Origin: a bacterium
Lineage (GTDB): Bacteria; Bdellovibrionota_C; UBA2361; RFPC01
Length of the DNA stretch: 64,000 nt
NCBI GenBank assembly: GCA_030431715.1
Contig: JAUIIO010000007.1
Coordinates: 33,756 to 97,755, forward strand
Direction of reading: 5' to 3'
Program-made: the position numbers
Shown: positions 57,001-60,000 of the stretch, piece after piece
Layout of the letters: the number at the start of each line of letters is the position of its first letter
Numbering within the stretch: position 1 is the stretch's first letter

Positions 57001-60000
57001 CGACCTCCTTGAGGATAAAGATTGTTCGGAGTTTGTCCGGCAGTTTTTGCAAGCAATTTTCAAGTGTTGAGAGGAATTGCTTCTGCTCGAGATGGTCTAC
57101 CGGGTTTAGTCGCCAGTCTGTTTCATCGCTGAGATTCTGTCCCAAAAGATCCTCTTCGATAGATGAGTTTGTCGACGATTGAGGTGTACGCGCATCACGT
57201 CGGAATTGGTCAATGATCTTGTGCCTGAGAATGCTTGTGAGCCAAGTTCTAAGTGTTGAATCGCCCTTGAACTTCTCCTTTGCCTTAAATGCGGCTAGAA
57301 ATGTTTCTTGGACAAGATCGCGAGCGGCTTCTGGTCGAGAAGTATGCTTAAGTGCATATCGATACAGTGCATCCCCGTGTTCGTCGACCCAGAGCGAAGG
57401 ATTTTGAAGAGTTTGTTTGGAGGAGCTCATAGAGTTCTGGTATACTCCATCACGTGAAGATGTATGGTGGACCGTGTAATAGTATGCCCGGCTACTAAGA
57501 GGACGTAAATCCCTAGAAGTATATCAGCAAGAGAGGCAAGGCAGATGGAAGAGGAAATGACTACCCAGAGCGAAGAGCGGTATGAATCTGCCAAGCCACG
57601 GGAGCGTCTCAGAAATAATGAAAGCGTTACGGTTTATAGGAGTTTCTTAGGAGAGGGTGTTCTTGTATTTGCTCTGCTCGCATCTTTTCTGCTTGTGAGA
57701 ATGATTATCTACACCATTCCATCCACTCTCTGGGAGACTCAGTTCTTTGTCCTTCTTGGGATTCCATTTGGATTTGTTTGGTCTCCACTTGAATGCATTC
57801 CTCTCATCATCGTAGGTGTTATCCTTTTTCGTATCTATGATGAGCGCTACGTAATTGAGTCGGATGCCGTGCTTCGCATTACAGGGTTATCAAGCATTGG
57901 TATTCGTACAACGGAAGCTTACCTTAAAAATGTTCGCGTGATTCGTGTGGAGCAAAACTGGTATCAGACCATTTTTGGTATTGGTGATGTGCGTGTATGC
58001 ACAAGCCACCTTGAGGAGGGCGATATCTGTTTGCGAGGAGTTGCAAACCCTTTTCAGAGAAAAGCACTTATAGAAAGACGTATGCACGGATCAGAAGAAG
58101 AGCTTATGGCGTAAGTACTCGTTCTTGTTCTTCGATCAGTTCAAGTATCCCTTTCTCAGCAACATCAAGGAGCTTATTGAGGAGATCGCGAGAGAAGGGG
58201 TTTCCTTCTGCTGTTCCCTGAACTTCAATAAGCTCCCTGTCCTTATTCATAACGAAATTCGCATCAACCTCAGCGGCTACGTCTTCTTCGTAGCACAGGT
58301 CGAGCATGACCTGATTATCAATGATGCCAGCGCTAATAGCTGCAACCGGAGAGAGTAGCGCCTCAGACGGGATTTTTCCCTTCGCTATGAGATCATTCAG
58401 AGCTTTTCTCAGCGCGATGTAGCCACCCGTGATCGAAGCTGTTCTCGTACCGCCATCTGCTTGGATAACGTCACAATCGACAGTTATGGTTCTTTGGCCT
58501 AGTAAGCGCAGATCCACCGATGCACGGAGTGAGCGACCAATGAGTCTCTGAATCTCCTGTGAGCGTCCACCAGGCCCATGTCGCTCTCTTCGAGAGCGGG
58601 TGAGTCCGGAGCGCGGAAGCATGGAGTATTCAGCCGTTATCCAGCCTCCTTCTTCTTCCTGAGATTTCATCCATGGGGGCACGCTTTCTTCGATACTGGC
58701 GTTGCAGAGGACTCTAGTGTTGCCCATAGATATGAGCACTGAGCCTTCAGCGCAGGGTACAAAGTCCATTTCAAGGCCTAGCTTTCTCAGTGAATCTTGT
58801 GATCGGCCATTTTCTCGCTTCATATGCAACCCTACTCATAAATTGTTGTTTCTTTTAAGGTATATACTAAACACAGAGCTCACAGAGAACACAGAGATAT
58901 TCAGTATGTTGGAAAAAAATTTTTCCAACCTCTGTGATCTCTGTGCACTCTGTGTTCTATTTTCACATGAGATACTCCCATGAAATGTGAGTGCAATGTT
59001 TAAATTCAGTAACTATTTATGAAAGACGAAAAAATCCAAACATTCATGAAACTTGCCGGGCAAAAGGTGGCGCAGTCATTTCAAGTAGGAGATGATGAGC
59101 AGCGCAAGCTAGGGGCCCAGCTCCTTCTGTCTGAGGTCCTCGAATATGTTATTAAAGGCCTCGGAGTTACTCCTGTAGTTAGTGGTACACCAATTGAGGA
59201 CCCTAATGGACTTGCATATGAGGTTCGCAGTTCGAAGCCTGACCACTTGGAGATGCTCGATGGCTTAGCGGACGTTGCGTATACGATGTATTGGAACTCG
59301 TGTGCGTTTGGTCTCAGACTAGAAGAGGCCTTTGAGCTGGTGTGCGACAATAATCTTGAAAAGTTCGTGAAACTCGATGGTTGGAGCACTGGTGAAAAAA
59401 CGCTCTCTGAGGCAGAGTGGGATCTCGGAATTGGGGTTACCTGGCCTGAGGAAGTGGTTGAGGTGTCTGTTCTACAAGTTGGAGCGGAGTTTTATGCTAC
59501 CGGTAAGGATAAGAACGGAAAAGTTCGAAAACCATCTTCTTATAAAAGTGTGGATCTAAAACCTTTACTATCATAGGAATTGAGTATGGATGTCTTAGAA
59601 GCAATTGAGCAACGTCGCGCAGTAAAACATTACGATGCAGAGCATCGTATGTCTGAAGAAGAGATTCGTAAGATCCTTACAAGCGCGATACAATCGCCGA
59701 CGGCATTTAACATACAGAACTGGCGCTTTGTGGTAGTTGAGGATCCTGAGCTCAGGAGAAAAATTCGAGGGGCTGCATGGGATCAGGCTCAGGTTACAGA
59801 TGCTTCTCTCCTTATTATACTTTGTGCGGATATGAAGGCTTGGCAAAAAGAGCCAGAGAGGTACTGGAAAGATGCCCCTGAGGCAGCTCGTAATATGCTT
59901 CTTCCAGCCATTGAACAATACTATAGTGGCAAGCCGCAGGTAGAGCGTGATGAGGCTCGTCGTTCGTGCGGTATCGCTGCACAGACGCTTATGTTAACAG

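Follow-up and report, generated by a model that had tools for sequence, protein, structure and literature searches.

The 88-nt element at positions 58869 to 58956 of the 64,000-nt stretch analysed here (contig JAUIIO010000007.1 of GenBank assembly GCA_030431715.1, from a Bdellovibrionota_C bacterium; hereafter the window) is an inverted pair of tagged heptad arrays in the gap between the divergent genes rph and an open reading frame (ORF) starting at 59019. It is an ordinary, canonical member of a heptad-array family that belongs among the interspersed extragenic inverted repeats and that, judging from pattern matches, is very widespread in the intergenic DNA of many bacterial phyla. We propose, with a probability of about one half and by analogy with known systems, that the heptad boxes are read on the DNA by a trans-acting protein that mobilises or maintains these elements. 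The family matters more than the single element, since the same tagged three-box set recurs from Bacteroides to Nostoc, Gemmatirosa, Acidobacteria, Planctomycetes, Bdellovibrionota-like metagenome-assembled genomes (MAGs) and viral contigs.

The element has the layout AAA-(CACAGAG-NN)x3, a 33-nt loop and (CTCTGTG-NN)x3-TT, exactly as the initial annotation had described it, including the three CACAGAG heptads per arm, the loop length and the palindrome; it is thus small, bounded by terminal inverted repeats and without an ORF of its own. The left arm (58869-58896, plus strand) reads AAA-CACAGAG-CT-CACAGAG-AA-CACAGAG with a 9-nt period, where the C of the AAAC tag doubles as the first heptad base, and the right arm (58930-58956, minus strand) reads CTCTGTG-AT-CTCTGTG-CA-CTCTGTG-TT on the plus strand and GAA-CACAGAG-TG-CACAGAG-AT-CACAGAG on the minus strand, with the tags (CTAAA-C and AGAA-C) both at the outer arm ends. 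Between them, the loop (58897-58929; ATATTCAGTAT-GTTGGAAAAAAATTTTTCCAAC) ends in a perfect inner 10+10 palindrome at 58908-58929, GTTGGAAAAA-AA-TTTTTCCAAC. Both arms agree with the family pattern WTTMAC-(CRCRGAG-NN)3 at 21 of 21 box positions. In a repeat search the arms measure 27 nt and are 89% complementary, and, as already noted in the initial annotation, heptad complementarity between them is intact, all mismatches falling within the 2-nt spacers. A long hairpin is predicted on either strand (-46.0 and -50.5 kcal/mol, z = -9.2 and -10.3), in which all six heptads are perfect and yet three of the four spacer positions remain unpaired; the boxes rather than a continuous helix would therefore be the conserved object. 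Within the window the pattern CRCRGAG-NN-CRCRGAG, with at most one mismatch, occurs 14 times against 0.16 expected and a shuffle maximum of 2, and all of these two-heptad matches except one lie inside four elements; a looser three-heptad scan returns the eight arms of the same four elements and nothing else. This clustering is far beyond chance.

To place the element in a wider context, related arrays were collected with the pattern CRSRGAG-NN-CRCRGAG-NN-CRCRGAG, which restricts two positions of the box to R and demands an arm of three boxes or more, from one genome per species, from IMG/VR and, with an AAAC prefix, from JGI metagenomes, the resulting family counts being samples rather than totals. 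At least 120 matching loci each were found in the species-representative genomes, in IMG/VR and in the metagenomes, with about 35 chance matches expected in the whole genome collection (pattern degeneracy times 596 billion bases, with both strands counted). The matches come from Acidobacteriota, Planctomycetota, Verrucomicrobiota, Chloroflexota, Cyanobacteriota, Bacteroidota, from delta-, beta- and gamma-proteobacteria and from further groups. BLAST against annotated records places unannotated, intergenic arrays in cultured Bacteroides finegoldii, B. ovatus, Nostoc, Anabaena, Calothrix and Pseudoalteromonas, and Gemmatirosa kalamazoonensis, likewise cultured and at 72% GC, carries three hairpins within 40 kb. 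No array match was present in 5,426 E. coli genomes, and the family may have escaped study because E. coli is without it. For annotation, the family explains contig breaks and filled stop-codon gaps in many MAGs.

The architecture of the family, counted here among the matches listed, is that of the 58869 element. Neighbouring arrays in genome loci are paired tag-outward in 73 of 94 cases and tag-inward in 9, with a similar proportion in metagenome loci and a more extreme one in viral contigs, and only 15 of 238 arrays exceed three heptads. The outer tag has the consensus WTTMAC (TTTCAC 34, TTTAAC 31, ATTCAC 22, also ATTAAC), about 40% of tags reading CAC/GTG; the inner flank of the arms is A-rich. 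An A at position -1 of the tag, as in the 58869 element, is a minority state (19% of genome arms), while AAACACAGAG-type arms are abundant in metagenomes, with 93 occurrences. Loops range from 8 to about 300 nt with a median of 39, close to the 33 nt found here, and are unrelated between genomes. The spacers are purine-rich on the CRCRGAG strand (GA, AG, AA, GG). All four boxes, CACAGAG, CGCAGAG, CACGGAG and CGCGGAG, are present and mixed within arms, CACAGAG being the commonest (45-55%) and CGCGGAG the rarest, and G becomes more frequent at the two R positions with increasing local GC, from 14-18% below 50% to about 37% above 60%. Solitary arms make up 51 of the 160 genome cases and, in viral contigs, 134 of 185. 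By crude stop-to-stop ORF calls, family members mostly adjoin gene 3' ends, typically 10 to 35 nt past the stop codon; convergent gaps (20/62 and 35/143) are apparently over-represented, in figures that carry no intergenic-context baseline, and divergent gaps, such as the one considered here, are the least frequent context.

The three other elements of the window, c1 to c3, are built from CGCGGAG boxes and share with the 58869 element the tag, the 9-nt period and the three boxes, which are common to all eight arms. All three are tag-inward and annotated on the plus strand. The first (c1, tail-to-tail, 44505-44633) reads CTCCGCG-TT-CTCCGAG-GG-CTCCTGTGTT, a 73-nt core and AAACAGGGAG-AA-CGCGGAG-GT-CGCGGAG, and fills the gap between a convergent ABC-F gene and a TlyA/FtsJ gene; the second (c2, 45412-45543, 76-nt core) separates the stop of a response-regulator gene from the tlyA start; and the third (c3, 60197-60329, 77-nt core) fills the gap between a convergent nitroreductase gene and the ORF at 60336-61145. 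Read from tag to heptads, the right arms of the three copies follow ..AATAAA-CAGGGAG-NN-CGCGGAG-NN-CGCGGAG, exemplified by the c3 right arm at 60302-60329, AAACAGGGAG-CT-CGCGGAG-AA-CGCGGAG, and the left arms follow ..A(T/G)(C/T)(A/C)A-CACAGGAG-NN-C(T/A/G)CGGAG-NN-C(G/T)CGGAG, such that the tag-proximal box is of the CA type even in these CGCGGAG copies. Their cores are of near-constant length with barely conserved sequence (z = 0.5-3.4). On the shared AAA(C) tag, 9-nt period and three heptads, the 58869 element is a real relative of these copies, a distinct CACAGAG type (one of two possibilities named in the initial annotation), from which they differ only at heptad positions 2 and 4. That annotation was also right that the arm order is opposite to that of c1 to c3; what does not hold is its description of the element as a flipped variant, the tag-outward order being the canonical one (73 against 9 above). 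Tag-inward dimers with cores of about 75 nt were found only in the window lineage among the matches listed, and a metagenome scan with an AAACA prefix contained no CAGGGAG/CGCGGAG-type copies among the matches listed. Because CACAGAG is the commonest box, favoured at low GC, and tag-outward is the dominant order, the 58869 element is the textbook form expected in a genome of 45% GC, with the CGCGGAG tag-inward copies as the unusual ones.

Further light on the units comes from a relative with 65% identity (L374), which carries, at 2780-2900, a solitary two-box arm, ACAGGAG-ca-CGCGGAG, that abuts the tlyA start codon, its GGAG sitting at the expected position of a ribosome-binding site; a tag-first arm follows the tlyA stop at 3400-3487, where the contig ends inside the arm, as in an assembly break at a multi-copy repeat. 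Since the arm is solitary at a position where the window has a dimer, arms are modular units that are gained or lost singly, and the arms of this relative also indicate that the CGCGGAG type is not bound to the tag-inward order. Within the window, c1 to c3 share plus-strand orientation, and the GC skew is positive throughout.

If pairing between the arms were the conserved feature, partner heptads should covary, and this was assessed on 99 non-redundant hairpins with three boxes in each arm. Partner heptads share the same R state in 78.1% of cases, against 76.2% for non-partners in the other arm and 77.2% for heptads within an arm; in the informative subset the figures are 70.6% for partners and 67.9% for non-partners (permutation p = 0.066). 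Spacers match in 36% of partner and 45% of offset comparisons, and family spacers are 34-36% complementary, the chance level. The likeness of the two arms thus reflects homogeneity of the element as a whole and not compensation at individual base pairs. In addition, c1, c2 and c3 each contain one uncompensated heptad mismatch (CTCCGAG or CTCCGTG against CGCGGAG), which in c2 concerns the middle heptads, CTCCGTG/CGCGGAG.

The history of the locus points to an old insertion. Two Logan contigs are identical to the window, and an orthologous copy, likewise 62 nt from the ATG, is present in the closest relative, L133 (SRR33375158; 83% amino acid identity); it aligns to the 58869 element without gaps, loop included, at 57 of 88 positions (65%). 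By comparison, 4-fold sites of the adjacent gene are only 32% identical (Jukes-Cantor distance 1.73) and the downstream flank 38%; insertion therefore predates the split between the two lineages, the copy having retained 65% identity although 4-fold sites are saturated. The boxes of the L133 copy are degenerate (CCCGAGG, CTCAGAG, CCGTGAG / CCCTGTG, CTAACGG, CGGTGTG), its pairing is lost with no remaining fold (z = +1.1), and its loop, about 60-65% identical by eye to that of the window, has lost the inner palindrome. It nevertheless keeps TGTG and CAGAG remnants, from which it follows that the A type at this site predates the L133 split as well. In the window copy, on the other hand, the 42 box positions and the 20-nt palindrome are without a single change, which on sequence comparison would require purifying selection or continued homogenisation in the window lineage, while in the L133 lineage constraint may have been relaxed, or lost only recently. 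Two more distant relatives, L127 (70% amino acid identity) and L132 (66%), keep the divergent rph/ORF pair and lack the array; their gaps measure 103 and 128 nt, against 104 nt for the window gap minus the 88-nt element, and at 66-70% identity both are too diverged to fix the insertion boundaries.

In light of these results, we read the 58869 element as two modular units, each consisting of the tag and three CRCRGAG boxes at 9-bp spacing, joined head-to-head (tag-outward). The 2-bp spacers are free apart from their purine-rich composition, the box sequence being held constant in place of continuous pairing, and this constancy of the box sequence, not of pairing, is what makes protein recognition the most likely explanation. 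A trans-acting protein would read the boxes as DNA sequence, each arm engaging three protomers or domains and each complex two arms, and would mobilise or otherwise maintain the small non-coding elements; hairpin or cruciform formation would be a by-product of the inverted layout, accessory at most. The element entered the rph/59019 promoter gap before the split from L133 and has been kept perfect in the window lineage. Multi-site transposon ends, and dimers of repetitive extragenic palindromic (REP) sequences or bacterial interspersed mosaic elements (BIMEs), share this arrangement of three sites per arm in two inverted arms. More tentatively, and short of even odds, the tag with its three-box arm could be the recognition module of an undescribed, horizontally spreading system present in at least 10 phyla and in phages, either a class of trans-mobilised mini-elements or a chromosomal binding array for a widespread DNA-binding protein, whose boxes have been kept past synonymous saturation. 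If a protein does read the boxes, the result would be a widespread repeat-protein pair comparable to REP sequences and the REP-associated tyrosine transposases (RAYTs), accessible in cultured hosts.

Several observations weigh against this proposal. An all-versus-all BLASTP comparison revealed no array-specific gene family near 120 genome and 120 viral loci, the recurrent ORFs around these 240 loci being only common transporters and phage structural genes. Nine arm pairs that stand 0.6-3.5 kb apart enclose unrelated ORFs, none obviously a transposase, and no transposase or RAYT domain was present in the scanned neighbours of the window copies (rph, tlyA, ABC-F, response regulator, nitroreductase), and between c1 and c2 stands a gene for a TlyA/FtsJ methyltransferase, not for a RAYT. 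The element-free relatives are too diverged to show target-site duplications, and loops and cores are unconserved among the window copies, which is unusual for a miniature inverted-repeat transposable element (MITE) mobilised as a whole. Spaced at 9 bp, successive sites come to lie on different faces of B-DNA, and the inner palindrome, perfect in the window and lost together with arm pairing in L133, would also fit selection on the fold in this lineage. The context figures, finally, come from crude ORF calls.

The strongest competing explanation, which we consider rather unlikely overall, places the action at the RNA level: the arms would be transcribed and fold into a long stem-loop, like a REP-type 3' hairpin or a terminator working in both directions, by which transcripts are ended or stabilised and which here would serve as a 5' leader or insulator hairpin for ORF 59019 or rph. 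The predicted hairpins are indeed very stable on both strands, family members lie mostly near gene 3' ends with an apparent excess in convergent gaps, and c1 to c3 fill stop-to-stop or stop-to-start gaps with a plus-strand RNA predicted to be 13-20 kcal/mol more stable than that of the minus strand; moreover, the window copy has retained both stem and inner palindrome where L133 has lost both together. The family nevertheless carries no strand signature, with potential G-U mismatches numbering 64 on the mRNA strand and 71 on the antisense strand in tandem contexts (p = 0.6), and TTTT follows the hairpins in 15 of 65 cases and precedes them in 16 of 65. Partner heptads lack covariation, spacers are non-complementary and many arms are solitary, and the copy in B. 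finegoldii stands just behind a canonical terminator hairpin with its own T-run. At the locus itself, a scan of the rph-59019 gap (58700-59150) returned no sigma-70 promoter and no intrinsic terminator, the latter having been considered as an identity for the element and rejected for lack of any stem-loop with a U-tract, and the divergent arrangement leaves no upstream gene reading into the element. The comparison with Rfam gave no match in the window at gathering score and, at E values up to 10, only generic microRNA-precursor hairpin models, and no match overlapped the arrays in 18 other loci or in the B. finegoldii copy. Two loci with heptad arrays also contain, outside the arrays, an Acido-Lenti-1 RNA (L061, 53-98) and a group II intron domain (L108, 5914-6062), respectively.

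It is improbable that the six boxes are simply a locus-specific operator, that is, transcription factor sites for divergent rph and ORF 59019 promoters. The divergent promoter gap, the direct and inverted box arrays typical of operators and the persistence of the element since the L133 split would all suit such a role; against it, identical boxes recur across many phyla at hundreds of intergenic places that have nothing in common, most of them at the 3' ends of genes, c1 to c3 lie between unrelated genes, and L127 and L132 have the same gene pair without the element.

Least tenable, and largely refuted, is the origin put forward in the initial annotation, namely a CGCGGAG copy deaminated at all of its CpGs with the partner arm compensated under selection for pairing, for which it can be said that heptads 2 and 3 differ from the c3 right arm only by G-to-A changes at CpG positions, that the tag and the CT and AA spacers are identical to those of c3 and that the arms are still complementary. 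The spacer identity, correctly observed, is weak evidence because CT (3/16) and AA (5/16) are frequent among the window spacers, and such identity is fairly often expected from host spacer usage. The window displays none of the compositional traces of 5-methylcytosine deamination (observed/expected ratios of 0.91 for CpG, 1.01 for TpG and 0.98 for CpA; 141 CGCG against 138.8 expected), A and G at both R positions are an ordinary family polymorphism that varies freely, with CACAGAG commonest, especially below 50% GC, and the A type is older than the saturated L133 split. Point mutation, furthermore, cannot change arm order, and the first heptads, CAGGGAG in the c3 right arm and CACAGAG here, differ at a non-CpG position. 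Nor does compensatory change stand as proof of pairing, given the lack of partner-specific covariation across the family and the loss of pairing in L133; uncompensated intermediates, named beforehand as the observation that would count against the idea, occur in c1 to c3 and in the L133 copy.

With respect to known systems, the 58869 element would work most like REP/BIME dimers and MITEs, by analogy of layout, but fails defining features of both. REP units occur singly or as head-to-head, tail-to-tail and head-to-tail dimers, the two units standing 1-100 bp apart with little conservation of the DNA between them (PMC3733652), and these dimer orders match the tag-outward 58869 element and the tag-inward c1 to c3. 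Like REP sequences, BIMEs and REP doublets forming hairpins (REPINs), the arrays are short extragenic sequences of high copy number without coding capacity; their unit bears a tag at one end, they are enriched near gene 3' ends, and they extend over several phyla. Unlike a REP unit, which is a 20-40 bp imperfect palindrome with a GTAG/CGTC tag, a heptad arm consists of direct 7-bp boxes with a WTTMAC tag and is not self-complementary, on which grounds the identification of the arms as REP or REPIN units was rejected; no RAYT (Y1 transposase) lies near any copy examined, and the box sequence is common across phyla where REP sequences are mostly species- or genus-specific. The inverted terminal arms, length of 60-250 bp and non-coding, intergenic character recall bacterial MITEs (Correia/NEMIS, ERIC, Nezha and the Tn3-derived TIMEs), and within Gemmatirosa and the Acidobacteria genome L009 whole copies are alike including loop and outer flanks, as in MITEs. 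In contrast to MITEs, no insertion sequence with the same ends was found that could be the parent, interiors resemble each other neither among the window copies nor from genome to genome, and there are solitary arms and both relative orders.

The closest conceptual parallel for a cross-phylum heptamer without a known reader may be the TAACTGA repeat. These heptamer repeats are distributed patchily in Beggiatoaceae, Cyanobacteria and Bacteroidetes, with horizontal spread suggested and neither mechanism nor binding protein known (PMC4679880); they are described as direct repeats, a single indirect one occurring among the 169 sets of one genome, and their usual place is immediately ahead of start codons (PMC4679880). 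The arrays described here resemble them, and the cyanobacterial STRR sequences, in that a specific heptamer is repeated two to several times in intergenic DNA, and differ in that the boxes stand 2 nt apart, usually exactly three per arm, tagged and typically in inverted pairs.

Like the attC sites of integrons, the arrays form imperfect inverted repeats with conserved ends and a variable centre after stop codons. The attC core has the consensus RYYYAAC / GTTRRRY, and some family tags (ATTTAAC ... GTTAAAT) fit it. An attC identity was nevertheless rejected: the tags of the 58869 element, ACTAAAC ... GTTCTAT, retain only the AAC/GTT pair, and the roughly 40% of family tags that read CAC/GTG depart from the invariant AAC/GTT. 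Unlike attC sites, moreover, the arrays form no cassette arrays, have no intI nearby and neighbour housekeeping genes, and they contain three identical boxes in place of R and L boxes with extrahelical bases. Resemblances to DnaA boxes, parS half-sites (TTTCAC/GTGAAA), the 'AAC' of ECF -35 elements, attC/Xer cores, a mimicked Shine-Dalgarno sequence (GAGGA), the elemental pause consensus and the CAGAG of Type III restriction sites were likewise set aside as presumably poor fits. Literature searches by heptads, heptad pairs and 16-mers, mostly outside subscription journals such that an earlier description is possible, returned no earlier description, only eukaryotic primers and the like, and concept searches returned only the analogies discussed above, REP dimers and TAACTGA repeats.

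As stated in the initial annotation, the element lies in a divergent gap, of whose 192 bases it makes up 88. On one side, rph (58104-58826, minus strand; RNase PH by Pfam) points away from the element, with 42 nt between its ATG and the left arm; on the other, ORF 59019 (59019-59576, plus strand) encodes a conserved product of 185 aa from an ATG 62 nt from the right arm. This product matched no Pfam family and gave no more than a weak PRA-PH (MazG-like) hint. Its homologues, 529 at E <= 1e-3 and mainly from MAGs and metagenomes, form a well-conserved family of proteins about 185 aa long; homologues carry the names Bdellovibrionales or Oligoflexia bacterium, and one source lists the product as a HAD/Cof-like phosphohydrolase. 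The element has no demonstrated effect on either gene and is probably an old passenger. A tRNA/tmRNA scan found none, despite the tRNA-like length of the 73-77 nt cores of c1 to c3.

Elsewhere in the family, the heptad hairpin can be nested in larger palindromic repeats, both in the Acidobacteria MAG L009 (3378-3588, 6661-6801 and 7688-7837) and in Gemmatirosa (L376; 17281-17415, 19977-20110 and 25819-25951), where the three copies of each genome have loops and extended flanks alike and the outer inverted flanks are conserved (e.g., GCCGCAGAGGACTGCC ... GGCAGTCCTCTGCGGC), lending them a MITE-like look. Inner hairpins, comparable to the 58908-58929 palindrome, are present in the loops of many family members. 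Long tandem expansions of the 9-mer are occasionally seen, as in Oscillochloris fontis (L025, 5621-5760) and at two further loci (L023, L086), with 10 copies of CACAGAGGA, 5 of CACAGAGAG and 6 of CGCGGAGAT; the expansion in O. fontis is directly followed by a second 9-mer array, (GCATAATCT)n.

In viral contigs, 3 to 7 arrays can occur within a few kb (IMG/VR contig L201, about 9500-13400; also L143, L156 and L200). Those of L201, L143 and L200 are often solitary, share the same strand and precede start codons by anything from a few to about 40 nt, another contig (L191) reads CACAGAG-gaat-ATG, and L156 has three hairpins adjoining minus-strand gene starts, an arrangement that suggests a leader or operator-like use of the phage arrays. 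As a general account, arms as start-codon leaders were rejected, since in the pooled data start codons come as close to the inner side of the arms as to the outer.

In Bacteroides finegoldii (L375, 5977-6212) the element begins within the T-run of a canonical terminator hairpin that lies downstream of a ferredoxin gene, and has a 124-nt loop that contains a long unrelated palindrome. PLSDB lists dozens of numbered 'plasmids' from one strain of this species (NZ_OY725904-NZ_OY725969), of which the one examined, NZ_OY725952.1 ('plasmid 50'), typed non-mobilizable and carrying the housekeeping genes metA, ribBA and lptF/G and a sequence resembling a tRNA gene, looks like a chromosome fragment and not like a plasmid.

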